From the NCBI GenBank assembly GCA_035530275.1, contig DATKVC010000001.1:5791-69790 (forward strand): a DNA stretch of 64,000 nucleotides. The letters run 5' to 3'. The notes beneath the pieces were generated by a model. That model did not search any database. It was not told the DNA's origin and saw only the letters and a list, made by a program, of their open reading frames with translations. Position numbers and translations under genes: made by a program. Source of the stretch: Rectinemataceae bacterium. GTDB taxonomy: Bacteria; Spirochaetota; Spirochaetia; Treponematales; Rectinemataceae. Shown one piece after another: positions 4,629 through 64,000 of the stretch. How positions within the stretch are numbered: position 1 is the stretch's first letter; every line of letters starts with the position of its first letter.

Positions 4629-5981
4629 ATGCAATCACCGAAAAGAGCCTTGCTTTCCCTCGTCCTTCCCGCATGGTCGACACGGGACATCGGCCTCGTC
4701 TTTTCCGCGCGTTTCTTCATGAGCGCGACTCGGGCCCTGGCCGGAATAGTCCTGCCAGTCTATCTCGCATCCCTCGGCTATTCGGGCTTCGCCCTCGGAA
4801 TATTGTACAGCCTCTCCGCGATCGCCTCGGCAATCCTCTCGACCCTCATCGGGTGGGGCTCGGACCGCTTCGGACGAAAGCCCTTTCTCATCGCCACGCC
4901 ACTCCTCACCGCATTGGCCTGTCTTGCTTTCATGTATTTCCGCGAGGCCCTCCCCCTTTTCGCCTTTGCCGCCCTCGGCTCCTTAGGTAGGGGCGCCGGA
5001 GCGGGCGCGGGAATGATAGGGCCCTACCAGCCGGCCGAGCAGGCTTATCTGACGGCCAAGGTAGGCGCGAAAGATCGCAACGCCCTTTTCGGGAGGATGG
5101 CCTTCACGTCGAGTCTCGGCGCCCTCGTCGGAGGGGGCCCGGCGATAGCCCTGGCGACCCTTCTCGCCTCGGGCAAGACTCCGGACGAATTTCGCCTCGA
5201 GTTTTTGTTCGGAGCACTCTTCGCCCTCGTTTGCGCCCTCCTCGCGATTCCCCTCGGCGAGAAGCGACCTCCCGCTCCAGCCGCGAAAAAACCTCGGGCC
5301 GAATCCGGCCGCCGCGGCCTCGGCGCCAGGCTCTCGCCGACCTCGTGGAAGATCCTCCTCAGGCTCTGGGTCACGAACGGCGTCAACGGGCTGGCCGTGG
5401 GTTTCTTCGGACCGCTTATTACCTATTGGTTCAATCGGCGCTTCGGCGCCTCCCCCCTCGAGATCGGCGTCCTCTATTCGCTCATAAACCTGGCGTCCCT
5501 GTCATCCAACCTCGCCTCCTCGAGGGTCGCCTCGCGTTTCGGCATCGTCAGGACCATCGTCGTCTCCCGCTTCGCCCAGGCTATCCTCATAGTACCCATG
5601 GTTCTCGCCCCTTCGTTCTGGCTCGCCGGCGCCATCTATCTCGTGCGCATGATGGTGCAGCGTCTGGGCCTGCCGCTCAGGCAATCCTTTGTGATGGGTG
5701 TCGTGCCCGACGAGGAGCGCGGCCGCGTCGGATCCCTCTCCAACCTGCCCTCGCAGGCGAGTTCAGCCCTCAGCCCCAGCCTCGCCGGCTATATTTTCGA
5801 GCGCCTCTCGATGGACGCTCCCTTCGCGATCGGGGCCCTTCTCCAGGGAGTGAACGCCTTCCTTTTCATGGTATTCTTTCGCGACATCAGGCCCCCGGAG
5901 GAAGCGCCTACTACCGAGTCCGATGAAAAAGTGACACAGCATTGCGGACTCGGTAGTAAGGGCGCCGATAGTCCTATCTAG
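4629..5981 (+). CDS. MFS transporter
   Basis: About 12 predicted TM segments and a [11 protein letters not shown] loop motif typical of MFS. Start moved to [12 protein letters not shown] (ATG 4629) because the ORF-track start overlaps metH. Confidence 0.8.
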
Positions 5982-6400
5982 GTCCTATTTTTCGCGAAAT
6001 CCCGCACGGCCGCCCTTATCTCGTCACGGACCTTCCGAACCCTGGCCATGATCTCCTCGTCGCTCCCGACGAAGGTCGAAGGATCGTCGAAAGGCCAGTG
6101 ATGGCGCTCCACCTTGCCCGGGAAGACGGGGCAGCGTTCGGCAGCCTCCTTCGAGCAGACGGTGACGACGACATCGTAGGTCCGGCCCGCGGAGCGGAGA
6201 TCGAAGACCGACTTGGTCGGGTTCCGCGAAATGTCGAGGCCGAACTCCGCCATCGAGCGTACAACGTAGGGATTGAGGCGGCCGGGCTCGAGGCCGGCGC
6301 TCTCGGCCTCGAAGCGATCGCCGGCCTCCGCCTTGAGAAAGGCCTCGGCCATCTGGCTCCGGGCGGAATTATGGACGCAAAGGAAGAGCACCTTCGTCAT
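5978..6400 (-). CDS. arsC: arsenate reductase, LMW-PTPase / thioredoxin-coupled type
   Basis: [21 protein letters not shown] with the CX5R P-loop and downstream cysteines. ATGA overlap with acr3 upstream. Confidence 0.9.
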
Positions 6401-7467
6401 GGCTGGCCTGGGATAGCGGCCCGGCCGGGGGCGAATCGAGTCTGAAACCGAAGCGCAACATTGACGAGGAGGAGCATCGCCGGCACTTCGATCAGGGGAC
6501 CGATAACGGCGGCGAAGGCCTGTCCCGAGCCAAGGCCGAAGACTGCCACCGCCACGGCGATGGCGAGCTCGAAATTGTTGCTCGCGGCCGTGAAGGAAAG
6601 GGTGACCGTCTTGGCGTAATCGGCGCCTATAGCCTTGCTCAGGGCGAAGCTGATGAAGAACATCGCGACGAAATAGATGAGGAGGGGTGCGGCGATTCGC
6701 AACACGTCCAGGGGAAGGGCGAGTATCTTCTCGCCTTTGAGGCTGAACATCACGAGGATGGTGAAGAGGAGGGCCACGAGGGTGAGGGGCGATATCTTCG
6801 GGATGAAGGAGGAGCGGTACCAGGCCTCGCCCTTCAGCCTCCTGAGGATCAGCCAGGAGATGAAGCCCGCGAGAAAGGGTATGCCGAGATAGATGCCGAC
6901 GCTCTTCGCTATCTCACCGATGCTCACGCGGACGGCGCTTCCGGCGAGCCCGAAGAGTGGCGGGATCAAGGTGACGAAAAGCCAGGCGTAGAGCGAGTAG
7001 AAGACGACTTGGAAAACCGAGTTAAAGGCCACGAGGCCGGCGCAGTACTCGGTGTCCCCCTTGGCCAGCTCGTTCCACACGATGACCATGGCGATGCAGC
7101 GCGCCAGCCCTATCATGATGAGGCCCACCATGTATTCCGGCTTGTCGCGGAGAAAGACGATGGCGAGGGCGGTCATGAGTATCGGGCCGATGACCCAGTT
7201 CTGGATGAGGGAGAGAGTCAGGACCTTCCTGTCCTTGAAAACGTCCTTTACCTCGTCGTAGCGCACCTTCGCCAGGGGCGGGTACATCATGAGGATGAGG
7301 CCTATTGCTATGGGGATATTCGTGGTCCCCACCGAGAGTCGATCCCAAAAGGAGGCGACGCCCGGGACCAGGGCGCCGGCCAAGACCCCGATGGCCATGG
7401 CGAGGAAAATCCAGAGCGTCAGCCAGCGGTCGAGGAAGGAGAGGCGCTTCGCGACGGTAGTCGGCAT
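6397..7467 (-). CDS. acr3: arsenite efflux permease, ACR3 family
   Basis: [20 protein letters not shown] and about 10 TM segments are typical of Acr3. Start chosen at MPTTVAK (ATG 7467) with GAGGAG upstream; the ORF track extends to 7512. Confidence 0.9.
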
Positions 7468-33665: not shown

Positions 33666-33706
33666 CAATGGACCTTACTTGCGCTCTTTGTTCTTGTCTT
33701 CGTTCT

Positions 33707-33748
33707 TCGCGATCGCTGCGCGATCGCGTTGCGGATGCTGCGCATCCG
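33707..33748. terminator. twin GC hairpins (cgcgatcgc-tgc-gcgatcgcg, then gcggatgc-tgc-gcatccgc) between the convergent maf-like and lepA genes; candidate bidirectional terminator
   Basis: Perfect stems read from the sequence; no U-tract on either strand. Confidence 0.45.
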
Positions 33749-33757
33749 CACAGACCA

Positions 33758-35581
<1,824 letters not shown>

Positions 35582-58731: not shown

Positions 58732-61700
58732 ATGAAAATTGAGCGTTTCTTCACTACAAAAGGAAATGGACCCTACGAGGGCATCGAATGGGTGGCTCGG
58801 ACGAGCGAAATCCGCAATCCCGACGGCAAGATCGTCTTCAAGATGGAAGGCGCGATCGTTCCCGCGAGCTGGAGTCCCATCGCCTCCGATATACTCGCGC
58901 AAAAATATTTCCGCAAGGCAGGGGTGCCCGCGGACCGGGCCGAGGAGTGGCAGAAGCATGTTCCCGCCTCGCAACTCGCCCTCGCCGGGCCCTCGCCCAA
59001 GCCGGGCGCCGAACACGACGCCCGACAGGTCTTCCACCGCCTCGCCACGACCTGGGTTCTCTGGGGCAAGTCGGAGGGCTATTTCGACTCGAAAGAGGAT
59101 GAAGAAGCCTTCTACGACGAGCTCCTCTACATGTTCGCCCGCCAGATGGCGGCCCCCAACAGCCCCCAGTGGTTCAACACGGGCCTCAACGCCGCCTACG
59201 GCATCGAAGGCCCCGCCCAGGGCCATTACTACGTCGATCCCAAGACAGGCGAGGTGACGAAGAGCGCCTCGGCCTACGCCCGCCCCCAACCCCACGCCTG
59301 CTTTATCCTCGATGTCCAGGACGACCTCGTCAACGAGGGCGGCATCATGGACCTCGTCACCCGCGAGGCGAGGCTCTTCAAATACGGATCGGGTACGGGC
59401 TCGAACTTCTCCAAGATCCGCGGCCTCAACGAATCCCTGTCCGGCGGCGGCGTCTCGAGCGGCCTCCTTTCCTTCCTCAAGATAGCCGATCGCTCGGCCT
59501 CGGCCATCAAGTCGGGCGGGACCACCCGACGAGCCGCCAAGATGGTCATCCTCGACGACGACCATCCCGACATCGAGACCTTCGTCGACTGGAAGGCCGA
59601 GGAGGAGTTCAAGGTAGCCAGCCTCGCGGCCGGCTCCGCCCTCCTCCGCCGCCACGCAGCCGACATCCTCACCGCCTTTCACGCGCCCGGCATCGACGAG
59701 GACAATCGCCTTTCCTTCACCGCCAACCCCGCCCTACGCCGAAGCGTCCGCGACGCCCTTCGCTCGGGCGTGCCGGCTCCCTGGATCCATCAGCTTCTTT
59801 CGAAAATCCGCCAGGGCGACGAGAGCCTCGAGATGCCGCACTACGACACCGCCTGGGAGGGCGAGGCCTACAACACCGTCGCGGGACAGGCTTCCAACAA
59901 TTCGGTCAGGCTTTCCAACGAATTCATGCAGGCCATGCTCGAGGACGGCGACTGGTCGATGACGGGCCGCATCAACGGCAAGACGACGAAGACCATCAAG
60001 GCCCGCGCCCTCTGGGATCGCATCGCGAAGGCGGCCTGGCAGTGCGCCGATCCGGGCCTCCAGTTCCACGGCACCGTCAACGAATGGCACACCTGCCCCG
60101 CCGACGGCGAGATCCGCGGTTCGAACCCCTGCTCCGAGTACATGTTCCTCGACGACACGGCCTGCAACCTCGCCTCCCTCAATCTCCTGACCTTCTTCGA
60201 CGCGGAGAAGGAAAGCTTCGACGACGTCGCCTACCGCCACGCCATCCGCATCTGGACCACCGTCCTCGAGATCTCGGTGGTGATGGCCCAGTTCCCCTCG
60301 AAGGAGATCGCGAAGCGAAGCTACGAGTTCCGCACCCTCGGCCTCGGCTACGCCAACCTCGGTTCCCTCCTCATGCAGATGGGCCTCGCCTACGACTCCG
60401 ACGAGGGCCGGGCCGTCGCGGCCGCCCTCTCCGCCATCCTCACGGGCGAGGCCTACGCCCAATCCGCGCGGATGGCCCGCGAGTGGGGCCCCTTCATCCG
60501 CTACGCCGCCAACCGCGACCATATGCTCCGCGTCATCCGCAACCACAGACGCGCGGCCTGGAACGCGGCCGACGCCGAGTACGAGAGCCTCACCGTCAAG
60601 CCCCAGGGACTCCGCGAGGAATTCTCGCCGAAGAACCTCGTCGACGCGGCTCGCGATTCCTGGGACGAGGCCCTCGCCTTGGGGGAGAAGCACGGCTACC
60701 GCAACGCCCAGGTCACCGCGATCGCCCCGACCGGTACGATCGGCCTCCTCATGGACTGCGACACCACGGGCGTCGAGCCCGACTACGCCCTCGTCAAATT
60801 CAAGAAACTCGCCGGCGGCGGCTACTTCAAGATCATCAACCAGAGCGTCCCCCCGGCCCTTCGCGCCCTCGGCTACGCCGAGACCGAGCTCGGAATCATC
60901 GAGACCTACGCCCTCGGCCGCGGCACACTCCGCGGCGCCCCCGGCCTTTCCTTCGAGTCCCTCCTCGCCAAGGGTCTGCCCCTCGCCTCCCTCGAAAAGG
61001 CCGAGGCCGCGATCAAAGGCGCCTTCTCCCTGGAGAGCTGCTTCGCCTCCTACGTCCTCGGCGCAGAGGCCTTCGCGGCACTCGGCATCCCCGAGGTCAC
61101 CTACAAGCTCCCCGGCTTCTCCCTGCTTCGCCATCTCGGCTACAGCGAGGACGAAATCGAGGAGGCCGAGCTCTGGGCCTGCGGCACGATGGGCGTCGAG
61201 GGAGCGCCTGGCCTCGATCCGGCGCATTACGGCGTCTTCGACACGGCCACCCCCTCGGGCAAGCGCGGCACCCGCGCCATAGCCTGGGAGGCCCACATCG
61301 CCATGATGGCGGCCGTTCAACCCTTCATAACTGGTGCTATTTCCAAGACGATCAACATGCCGAACACGGCGAGCTACGAGGACGTGAAGGGAGCCCACCT
61401 CCTCGCCTGGCGCTCGATGCTCAAGTCCATCGCCCTCTATCGCGACGGCTCCAAGCTCTCGCAGCCCCTGGCCGCCCTCGCTCCCGGAGCCGACCTCGTC
61501 GCCGACTCCATCGTCGCCCTGCAGACAGGCGATGAGGAGGACGAGGAGCCCCGGCAGTCCCCGCAGGGCGAGGCCCAGCAGCGGCTCTTCCGCGAAGAGG
61601 CGCCCGAGCTCCCCGGCCTGCCCGCGGCCCCCCGCGGAAGGCGCCGCGCCCTGCCCAACCGCCGCGCCGGCTACACGCAGAAGGCCAAGATCGCCGGTCA

Positions 61701-62331
61701 CTCCGTCTTCGTCCGCACAGGCGAATACGAGGACGGGGCCCTCGGAGAGATCTTCCTTGACATGCACAAGGAGGGAGCGGCCTTCAGGTCGATCCTCAAC
61801 TCCTTCGCCATCGCCGTGTCGCTCGGCCTGCAATACGGCGTCCCCCTCGAGGAATACGTCGACGCCTTCACCTTCACCCGCTTCGAGCCCAACGGCATGA
61901 TCCAGGGCCACGACTACATCAAGATCTCGACGAGCGTCCTCGACTACGTGTTCCGCGACCTCGCCATCGCCTACCTCCAGCGCCACGACCTCGGCCAGAT
62001 CAAACCCGAGGATCTCGAAGCCACCGGCATGCAGACGCGGACCCTGCGCAATTCCTCGGGATTCTCCCAGCCGCAGCGGGAGCGCCACGATTCCATCCAA
62101 GGCGTTCTCGGCACCCGTTCCGGCGACGAAGCCGCGGCGTCTCGCGAGACCGCGCCGCGCGAGACGACGGCCAAGCGCGCCGAGGAGCGCGCGCCTCGAG
62201 ACAGCGCCCGAACCGCGCGGATGAAAGGCTTCGAGGGCGACCCCTGCCCCGTCTGCGGCAACATGACCCTCGTCCGCAACGGAACATGCCTGAAGTGCGA
62301 GACATGTGGGTCGACTACAGGTTGTAGTTGA
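58732..62331 (+). CDS. nrdJ: class II (adenosylcobalamin-dependent) ribonucleotide reductase with C-terminal zinc-finger / redox tail
   Basis: About 1200 aa. NPCSEY active-site region and [10 protein letters not shown]-terminus [31 protein letters not shown] 58732 with a GAGGGGGGAG RBS upstream. Confidence 0.95.
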
Positions 62332-62529
62332 GTCTCGCACTTCAGGCTCATAGGCCCCGCGGAATCGCGCAAGCGATTCCGCACCGCCATCGCGCAGCGA
62401 TGGCGAGGGACTTGCGGTAGCACAACTGGCTGTAGCTGAGCCTCGCGCTTCAGGCTCATAGGCCCCGACGAAGGCGCAAGCCTTCGTCACGCGATCGCGC
62501 ACGCGCGATCGCGAGGGACCTGCTTCGAT
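62305..62529 (+). repeat. tandem 108-nt modules (unit A 62305-62412, unit B 62413-62520, truncated third start at 62521), each with a [11 protein letters not shown] coding segment, a conserved 24-nt box and two hairpins
   Basis: Aligned by hand; see the first finding. Hairpins at 62359-62382, 62385-62405, 62467-62488 and 62490-62513. Confidence 0.9.
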
Positions 62530-62694
62530 GAAATCGTCTATCTTGTAGAACAAGGCCCATCGAATCCCCCCCGAAAATAAAATCTCGCGAAATTCCTTGT
62601 CCCCCTCCCCCTGGACGCGTAATTTTGTCGCCAGGAGTCTCGATCATCGCCCGCGCCACGGGCGAGCGAGTTCCGGTCTTGGATGGATACATGA

Positions 62695-64000
<1,306 letters not shown>

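Follow-up and report, generated by a model that had tools for sequence, protein, structure and literature searches.

A covarying hairpin module and a second copy of the gene end downstream of nrdJ in Rectinemataceae

In a 64,000-nucleotide stretch of the genome of a Rectinemataceae bacterium (contig DATKVC010000001.1; hereafter the window, meaning the whole stretch analysed), the class II ribonucleotide reductase gene nrdJ is followed by an array that repeats the end of the gene itself. A second copy of the last ten codons and the stop lies just downstream, and each copy is followed by a short box and a pair of hairpins. The first box pairs back into the coding sequence, and the resulting fold carries compensatory changes across the family. 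The same kind of twin hairpin stands after a second gene, lepA, again together with a duplicated gene end. The reading that we favour, with confidence about evenly divided for and against, is that of a structured cassette array in the 3' untranslated region (UTR) that arose by recombination, in which the second tail would be a displaced former gene end and not an extension of the protein. An earlier note on this DNA, made from its letters alone, had described the repeat and offered three readings: recoding of the first UGA stop, a duplication or recombination scar that preserves a structured 3'-UTR element, and a small palindromic element that carries its own gene end. The second of these is essentially supported by the covariation and the module tree described below.

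Organisation of the nrdJ array

The product of nrdJ is 100% identical to P0001, [quoted passage not shown], which matches Pfam PF08471, PF02867 and PF12637. Class II enzymes possess a six-cysteine zinc-binding array at the C terminus that carries electrons (PMC5704485), and the C-terminal part of NrdJ, in which CPVC lies upstream of a terminal CGSTTGCS tail, fits such an array. The tail is near-invariant, since only 4 of the 120 homologues listed vary, at one tail residue.

The two nrdJ tails (62305-62331 and 62413-62439) lie 108 nt apart in the same frame, as the earlier note had observed, and differ at 9 of 27 nt. All nine differences are synonymous, a TCG/AGC serine switch included, and none of 200,000 random sets of nine changes preserved the peptide and the stop. 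The repeat begins 6 nt before the tail, with GAGACA in the gene and GGGACT in the second copy, and each copy spans 33 nt, that is, the last ten codons plus the stop. The box that follows the first stop (62332-62347) is the exact reverse complement of coding sequence at 62288-62303, giving a 16-bp helix, P0, that encloses the last nine codons and the stop in its loop; this perfect inverted repeat is also paired in the minimum-free-energy fold. The 19-nt box CTTCAGGCTCATAGGCCCC occurs at 62340 and 62448 only within the 64 kb, against 0 occurrences expected by chance. Each box is followed by two perfect hairpins (HP1 and HP2), both units close with gagggacYtgc, and the nrdJ frame meets no stop other than the two TGAs up to a TAA at 62578-62580; here too the description in the note proved accurate. 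The features of the array are as follows.

58732-62331, + strand: nrdJ, class II B12-dependent ribonucleotide reductase, 1199 aa, from the open reading frame (ORF) call.
62288-62303, + strand: X, the 5' arm of helix P0, inside the coding sequence; GCCTGAAGTGCGAGAC, codons for CLKCET.
62299-62331, + strand: direct repeat copy A, the true gene end and P0 loop; GAGACA, the last 8 codons and TGA, 33 nt.
62332-62358, + strand: box A and linker; the box GTCTCGCACTTCAGGC is the 3' arm of P0, the linker is TCATAGGCCCC.
62359-62382, + strand: HP1 of unit A; GCGGAATCGC-GCAA-GCGATTCCGC, with four pairs that covary across lineages.
62385-62405, + strand: HP2 of unit A; CGCCATCGC-GCA-GCGATGGCG, with two covarying pairs.
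62407-62439, + strand: direct repeat copy B; GGGACT, the second tail CGSTTGCS and TGA.
62440-62466, + strand: box B and linker; GCCTCGCGCTTCAGGC.
62467-62488, + strand: HP1 of unit B; GACGAAGGC-GCAA-GCCTTCGTC.
62490-62513, + strand: HP2 of unit B; CGCGATCGCGC-AC-GCGCGATCGCG.
62514-62523, + strand: truncated third junction, AGGGACC TGC; a third repeat copy begins here and breaks off after its first codon.

The 3' end of HP2 in unit A, GCGA(G), provides the microhomology of the junction, and copy B is interpreted as an untranslated, displaced gene end. Box B has two pairing options, either X (with one G.U pair) or GCGAGG at 62403-62408, and HP1 of unit B has its orthologue in the hairpin that follows the second tail of a relative, L001. 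The whole may be viewed as two tandem "nrdJ 3' cassettes", each comprising the last ten codons and stop, a box that is the reverse complement of the CLKCET codons, and a twin hairpin. Once transcribed, such an array would form the 3' terminus of the nrdJ mRNA and would fold on the plus strand, P0 first and then HP1 and HP2.

The array in related lineages

The nrdJ loci of 11 further lineages, with 72-89% protein identity, were fetched, giving 12 lineages in all with the window; module scans were run on the 64-kb window and on 131 kb of these loci, which are cited below by our locus handles. Both the module and the second tail are present in the window, L001 (= L009), L013, L014, L016 (= L017, L018) and L019, while in L002 the module is present and the contig ends inside it. 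Both are absent from L003, L004, L012, L020 and L021. The alignment of nrdJ 3' ends among relatives, which the earlier note had proposed, thus reveals a module conserved in seven lineages. Element-bearing and element-free states are interleaved on the nrdJ tree, and the element-free L020 has a classical terminator after nrdJ.

The order of parts is shared throughout: X (CCTGAARTGCGAGAC), tail A and its stop, a spacer of 0-30 nt, box, linker, HP1 and HP2, followed by GCGA-GRGACN, tail B and its stop, and a second unit that is often degenerate. HP1 is of the type GCGGAA...TTCCGC or GACGAAG...CTTCGTC, and in L019 the downstream unit type occupies the first position, perfectly paired with that lineage's own codons. 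The junction HP2-GCGA-GRGACN-TGC is identical in pattern across all lineages with a second tail.

Tandem joining of two strain alleles of the nrdJ 3' end during metagenome assembly would produce a similar picture; the contigs are metagenomic, and those of L002 and L015 end inside the element. The window sequence at 62201-62900 is, however, identical in two contigs (L010 and L011) from two other samples and from different pipelines, which argues that the array is not an artefact of assembly. The arrays of L001 and L009 agree as read, those of L016, L017 and L018 agree over 420 nt, and analogous arrays are present in JGI, ENA and NCBI contigs. The units are, moreover, mosaic and not allelic copies, and the repeats that they share are far shorter than an assembly k-mer. 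We consider an artefact extremely improbable.

A covarying fold that includes coding sequence

The array region folds with z = -8.6 relative to shuffled sequence. The six first units were aligned and a consensus structure was derived with RNAalifold, yielding 16 pairs in P0, 11 in HP1 and 7 in HP2, with 96% of cells paired on this consensus. Nine pairs show double compensatory changes, and P0 contributes three pairs with compensatory change across lineages. For cells paired, covariation score and both-sided changes, none of 500 shuffles reached the observed value, and this held for four of five measures overall; the observed number of further pair types was reached by 33 of 500. When the consensus was slid by 1-3 columns the counts fell to about zero. 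P0, HP1 and HP2 are thus maintained by compensatory changes in the seven Rectinemataceae lineages that bear the module. The earlier note had inferred covarying twin hairpins from the two units of the window; covariation stands as a feature of the family, in the six first units, but HP1 of unit B is not simply a covarying copy of HP1 of unit A.

The pairing of P0 ties codons to their untranslated partner. The box follows synonymous codon changes, a lysine AAG/AAA being answered by C/T in the box, and in L019 Leu-TTG and Glu-GAA are answered by A and T. G.U pairs that can form only on the plus strand occur in the box of L002, in box B of the window and in HP1 of the second unit of L001, and the plus-strand fold is at least as stable in 28 of 32 hairpins. 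These two features point to an RNA structure at the 3' end of the nrdJ mRNA. The structure matches no Rfam family: the best match within 61800-63000 scored 18.8 bits against a threshold of 76, nothing but a tRNA passed its gathering score in the whole window, and permissive E-values gave no family either. An additional helix predicted in the window, P1 (AGGCCCC/GAGGGAC), was rejected as it is not conserved in relatives.

The end of the gene is also distinctive at its third codon positions. Across the 12 lineages, the last nine nrdJ codons (62302-62328) have a mean third-position identity of ~0.32, versus ~0.67 for the rest of the gene; pairwise values range from 0.18 to 0.59, and the C/G-ending bias of the remaining gene is missing. 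The drop is sharp and coincides with the point at which both the repeat and the P0 loop begin. These near-random third positions could reflect hypermutation of the loop, turnover of cassettes or selection against pairing.

We consider the compact P0-HP1-HP2 structure most likely to be the part under selection, as a 3'-end barrier or stabiliser or as a terminator-like element. It would block 3'-to-5' decay, end the transcript without a U-tract, or both. Because a ribosome decoding the last 15 codons would have to melt P0, the structure could report on translation of the mRNA end, and the state of the array would be coupled to translation. With P0 open, the box could form an alternative, bulged helix of 7 bp with the GCGAGRGAC junction, and this helix would close a three-way junction that contains HP1 and HP2.

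A second site at lepA

A covariance model of the first units (R1) matched a second site in the window, one outside the model, at 33701-33798 on the minus strand (42.7 bits, E ~6e-8). It lies at the end of lepA, which encodes EF4, and has the following parts.

33758-33803, - strand: end of lepA; repeat copy A is GAG AAC GAA GAC GAT TCA AAC GAG CGG AGG TGA, 33790-33758.
33708-33749, - strand: twin-hairpin module 3' of lepA; GCGGATGC-GCA-GCATCCGC, AA, CGCGATCGC-GCA-GCGATCGCG; found also with filters off.
33675-33707, - strand: second lepA end; AAG AAC GAA GAC AAG AAC AAA GAG CGC AAG TAA (KNEDKNKERK-stop).

A P0-like helix is present here as well, in which CCGTCCTCCGC pairs with GCGGAGG-TG-ATGG and the last codons and stop take part. 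The second lepA end lies 83 nt downstream of copy A and is out of frame. The two ends, ENEDDSNERR-stop and KNEDKNKERK-stop, have the same length. Their differences fall at every codon position (3:3:4), as one would expect were selection to filter essential tails only. LepA proteins of more distant relatives end in tails similar to the second lepA tail, e.g. RENEDNKKER/K, and the lepA HP2 is nearly identical to the HP2s of the window nrdJ array, which it resembles most. The repeats of the two genes are alike in that they begin with GAGA, are preceded by GC, measure 33 nt and end at the stop, and the module ends in ...GCGAT(G/C)GCGA in both. This agreement between repeat start and module end makes the junction a microhomology of 4-6 nt with 1-2 extra bases.

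Duplicated gene ends were also sought blindly, by looking downstream of each of the 249 window ORFs of at least 120 aa for a copy of its last 33 nt. lepA (23/33) and nrdJ (22/33) came out on top, with their stops aligned, and the rest was noise; in the same scan of the relatives' loci nrdJ alone stood out. A model of the hairpins alone (R2), run with filters off, found three copies at two loci in the 64 kb, and with default filters it found only nrdJ-linked copies in the 131 kb of relatives' loci. The covariance scan that the earlier note had envisaged uncovered the lepA site and, within the 64 kb and 131 kb scanned, no dispersal over dozens of sites. In an exact-pattern scan of 185,579 representative genomes and JGI metagenomes, the box was found only at nrdJ of L001's species (L007, L009) and at two other places: inside a coding sequence of a metagenome-assembled genome labelled Acidobacteriota (L006), and in L008, with no nrdJ in the ~800 nt around it. 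On the opposite strand the shared 22-mer encodes MSLKRE, ordinary GC-rich coding sequence, and the latter two hits are read as chance matches. The HP1 pattern GCGGAA...TTCCGC was found at nrdJ only, within the window and the relatives' loci. The note's third reading, a palindromic element with a gene end, thus gains from the recurrence of the twin hairpin after lepA together with a duplicated lepA end, but the box is not dispersed, and hallmarks of the transposase type were not found.

Divergence of the two tails and exchange of cassettes

The divergence between copies A and B is bimodal, at 0/33 in L001 and 2/33 in L013 but 8-11/33 in the window, L014, L016 and L019. The differences are synonymous in 9 of 9 cases in the window, 8 of 8 in L014, 7 of 7 in L016 and 7 of 9 in L019. 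On the tree, the third-residue serine of the tail has undergone at least four switches between TCN and AGY codons; synonymous steps cannot lead from TCG to AGC. Tail A of the window shows 4 differences from that of the distant L019 and 8 from that of its sister L001. The modules likewise depart from the gene tree: those of the first units of L014 and L016 are 91% identical and those of L013 and L014 only 73%, though L013 and L014 are sisters, while the first modules of the window and L013 are 84% identical. The segments that have been homogenised differ from genome to genome: in L001 it is the tails, in L013 the tails and the hairpins, and in the window the box. Taken together, the bimodal divergence, the serine switches and the incongruent module tree argue for exchange or displacement of whole 3' cassettes and not for slow divergence in place.

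We propose that recombination would occur at a short homology between the HP2 end, ...GCGA(G), and the codons tGC GAG, which lie 33 nt upstream of the stop. An incoming gene end with its module, from another allele or from a neighbouring unit, would thereby push the resident end downstream, and cassettes would also be exchanged between related lineages. At the DNA level, the hairpins could bring the GCGAG of the coding sequence and the GCGA(G) after HP2 together, favouring template switching or unequal exchange and hence duplication or deletion of cassettes. The two tails would differ only synonymously because each had been shaped as a working gene end in a separate allele. Some second tails show signs of slight decay: L013 has a C to R change, L019 a G to R change, and the junction codon has gone from E to G in the window and in L013.

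A number of observations weigh against displacement by recombination and against the proposed 3'-end function. Over six lineages the second tails show ~30 synonymous versus ~4 non-synonymous changes; their stops are always retained, both stops being TAA in L016. Relics decaying in place predict about equal numbers of synonymous and non-synonymous differences, unlike what is observed, and displacement accounts for the coding-like pattern only with recent or recurrent events. Among the 12 lineages no naive allele with a single cassette was found. In L001, L014 and L016 the two unit types, upstream and downstream, appear to be orthologous, a sign that the array may be old. Finally, no intrinsic terminator with a U-tract was found in 62000-63000.

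Gene conversion alone was also considered as the source of the pattern and rejected, as it predicts synonymous and non-synonymous changes in similar numbers.

Alternative explanations

The earlier note's first reading was that recoding of the UGA gives NrdJ extra redox tails and that the second tail is selected as translated peptide. More broadly, the first stop might be read through (by UGA readthrough or selenocysteine insertion) or hopped, giving isoforms that end in the second tail. In keeping with this, the tails are in frame across an open path in the window, in L001 (126 nt apart) and in L016 (138 nt), the second tail shows the conservation pattern of coding sequence and retains its stop, and a strong hairpin surrounds the stop as at known bypass sites, of which T4 gene 60, with a hairpin enclosing the stop, is an example. 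The path is nevertheless blocked by an in-frame TGA in L019 (120 nt, in frame), by stops in L013 (128 nt, +2 frame) and by one stop in L014 (118 nt, +1 frame), and the first stop is TAA in L016-L018 and in L019. With an open in-frame path in only three of six lineages and TAA as first stop in two, readthrough or selenocysteine insertion is not a general explanation. Peptide-level selection by translation of the second tail finds no support. Furthermore, the sequence right after the first stop is a helix arm that pairs back into the coding sequence, not a hairpin resembling a selenocysteine insertion sequence (SECIS), and the translation between the tails changes wherever the stems covary. A fused double tail or an internal second tail was seen in none of the 120 NrdJ homologues listed, and no selenocysteine tRNA was found in the 64-kb window, where the tRNA/tmRNA scan gave only a tRNA-Glu. 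Ribosome hopping is independent of frame, but its product is the normal protein, the same as that of ordinary termination; the threonine codons that precede the two tails match in just two of the six lineages, L001 and L013, are ACT and ACC in L016, where one tRNA could possibly read both, and differ in the other three. Recoding in any of these forms seems to us very unlikely. An inversion of the 28-nt P0 loop, which would open the window frame to the second tail, was rejected since known invertases would require a longer loop and since the argument from the reading frame does not hold for L013 and L014.

Two further explanations accept that the second tail is untranslated. In one it is selected directly in place, as a second binding site, mimic or decoy in the 3' UTR for a factor that reads the tail region by the nucleotides fixed under coding constraint, or as a spare end regularly used through deletion or conversion. 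The almost exclusive variation of the six second tails at third positions, with the stop always kept, would follow naturally, as would the perfect HP1 and HP2 stems retained, with different sequences, in lineages that have a downstream unit, the apparent orthology of unit types across deep lineages and the matching of an A to G change in the window junction by T to C in box B; the second lepA tail, whose peptide is unconserved, shows no such constraint. Yet the segment that runs from the junction to box B and includes tail B folds no better than shuffled sequence (z 0.0 to +1.2) and its helix registers differ among lineages, non-synonymous changes have occurred in L013 and L019, we know of no candidate factor, and deletion or conversion between copies 33% diverged would probably be too infrequent to exert selection. 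Direct selection on the second tail we regard as unlikely, and we likewise give only a small chance to the general proposition that an untranslated second end is kept codon-perfect by selection, be it as a decoy, as a landing or backup end reached by ribosomal or polymerase bypass, or through frequent hairpin-driven deletion. In the other explanation the twin hairpin is a low-copy mobile element, similar to a REP or MITE (both described below), that settles at gene 3' ends and whose insertion duplicates at least ~33 nt of the target, the nrdJ array being an old, domesticated case. The module does stand at two unrelated gene ends in 64 kb, both with a 33-nt repeat that runs from GAGA after GC to the stop; the lepA HP2 is most like its nrdJ counterparts in the same window, and the repeats of L001 and L013 show few or no differences, which is what a recent target duplication would leave. 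Three copies in 64 kb, none outside nrdJ in the relatives' 131 kb and a box found elsewhere only at the nrdJ genes of L007 and L009 and in two chance-like matches are, however, hard to reconcile with mobility, as is the lack of terminal inverted repeats and of an identified transposase. We know of no transposase with a 33-nt target duplication, which falls outside the known range, and the TCG and AGC serine codons cannot derive from an identical duplication under purifying selection. We therefore hold mobility to be distinctly improbable, and retain as our preferred reading the recombination of structured cassettes with displacement of the former gene end.

Comparison with known systems

The kinds of element already known that we rate the array as resembling are extragenic hairpin modules and displaced or replacement gene ends. 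Repetitive extragenic palindromic (REP) sequences and bacterial interspersed mosaic elements (BIMEs) are palindromes at gene 3' ends that stabilise mRNA 3' ends, are mobilised by REP-associated tyrosine transposases (RAYTs) and occur in tens to hundreds of dispersed copies per genome. The nrdJ and lepA modules are similar in being short, GC-rich, paired hairpins right after stops, present at more than one locus per genome and most alike within a genome, with a plausible role as a barrier to 3' exonucleases. They differ in an apparently very low copy number, with 3 copies in 64 kb and only nrdJ-linked ones in 131 kb, in an extra helix arm inside the coding sequence that covaries with synonymous sites, and in being flanked by 33-nt gene-end repeats. 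REP super-families carry a GTAG or CGTC tag at the palindrome end (PMC3733652). By comparison, the upstream-type HP1 is GCGG...CCGC with no tag, and the downstream-type HP1 is GACG...CGTC. No RAYT gene was seen in the 64 kb inspected. Miniature inverted-repeat transposable elements (MITEs) have terminal inverted repeats and target duplications of 2-10 bp, whereas the flanking repeats here are 33 nt of gene end and there are no terminal inverted repeats beyond the internal hairpins.

Integrative elements that carry a replacement 3' gene end are exemplified by phage 21 and e14 in icd of E. coli. There, as here, two gene-end copies flank inserted DNA, the in-frame copy being functional and the displaced one silent, with mostly synonymous differences. 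In the present case, however, only 81-111 nt separate the copies, with no integrase or other ORF, and the arrangement is conserved as RNA structure across a bacterial family. Displaced ends or modules also form downstream "orphan" arrays in Rhs, contact-dependent inhibition (CDI) and type VI secretion system (T6SS) effector-immunity loci. The likeness lies in an incoming segment that recombines via conserved upstream sequence and displaces the resident end, the other joint being illegitimate or formed at microhomology; here every second copy starts with GRGACN after GCGA, its codons intact or nearly so. In contrast with those systems, the displaced piece comprises only ten codons of a housekeeping enzyme and encodes the same peptide without diversification, and the nrdJ case is tied to a structured RNA module.

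The arrangement also recalls two systems that it does not match. As with a SECIS, a UGA is followed by a hairpin and, in the window, by an open frame; unlike a SECIS context, two lineages have TAA as the stop, three have a closed frame, and the sequence after the stop pairs back with the coding sequence. As in the template and variable repeats of diversity-generating retroelements (DGRs), an untranslated gene-end copy just downstream keeps coding information and hairpins lie near the gene end. Only 2 of 9 differences fall at adenines of the downstream copy, however, and the peptide is invariant; the differences not being adenine-specific, a DGR was rejected. No reverse transcriptase was found among the Pfam matches of the neighbouring genes.

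Flanking genes and further observations

The gene 3' of nrdJ varies by lineage, being katG or a gene for a methyl-accepting chemotaxis protein (MCP)-like HAMP protein, HAD hydrolase, alpha-amylase, glyoxalase, arginine deiminase (ADI) or FAD-binding protein. As the downstream gene changes in almost every lineage, the 3' flank of nrdJ appears to be a rearrangement hotspot. A radical-SAM-like gene lies upstream of nrdJ in 11 of 12 loci, L020 being the exception. Within nrdJ, L011, a contig related to the window at strain level, and the window encode an identical protein, and 25 of their 26 silent differences fall within ~735 nt in the 5' third of the gene (window 59007-59742), with zero differences over the final 131 nt of nrdJ or in the element. 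This cluster has the look of a recombination tract.

Downstream of nrdJ, L013 has three twin-hairpin modules (6100-6363), two of them near-identical, with 1 difference over the 65 nt common to both, and a divergent middle one, GCAGAATCGCC...GGCGATTCTGC plus GCCAGCGC...GCGCTGGC. The contigs of L002 (end at 6658) and L015 (end at 6201) stop 61 nt and 14 nt past the nrdJ stop, respectively; contig ends inside the element may indicate population heterogeneity in unit number or trouble in assembling palindromes. The element-free L003 has unrelated tandem repeats of ~100 nt 3' of nrdJ (~6880-7300), each with a hairpin GGCGCTGCGCGCC, and this tandem array runs into a gap of Ns. In L020, a complete 3.26-Mb genome without the element, a 14-nt string equal to window box B (GCGCTTCAGGCTCA) lies at ~5190-5212, 120-140 nt after nrdJ and at the stop of a convergent gene of the arginine-deiminase family; it could be a chance match or a remnant.

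An antisense ORF (61971-62459, - strand, 162 aa) traverses both tails in the frame that shares their wobble positions, its ATG deriving from the CAT of box B (ctCATagg). That ATG is not conserved in L014, L016 or L019, and the ORF is probably spurious.

Significance

The gene-end duplications at nrdJ and lepA, in which a hairpin module is tied to the duplication of exactly the last ten codons and stop of two unrelated genes, point to a specific recombination process of which we found no description in the literature. For annotators they carry a caution, in that in-frame duplicated tails of this kind should not be called recoding. They also offer a natural case for studying how untranslated sequence retains a coding-like substitution pattern. 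If the second tail should prove to be directly selected, it would represent coding-like constraint on sequence outside normal translation, and the twin hairpin would be a previously undescribed element that systematically duplicates its host gene's last ten codons and stop. In the Rectinemataceae, the 3' end of an essential gene bears a conserved, covarying RNA structure in which one strand of the main helix is coding sequence, such that synonymous sites of nrdJ are constrained by their partner in the UTR, and the UTR in turn by the codons.

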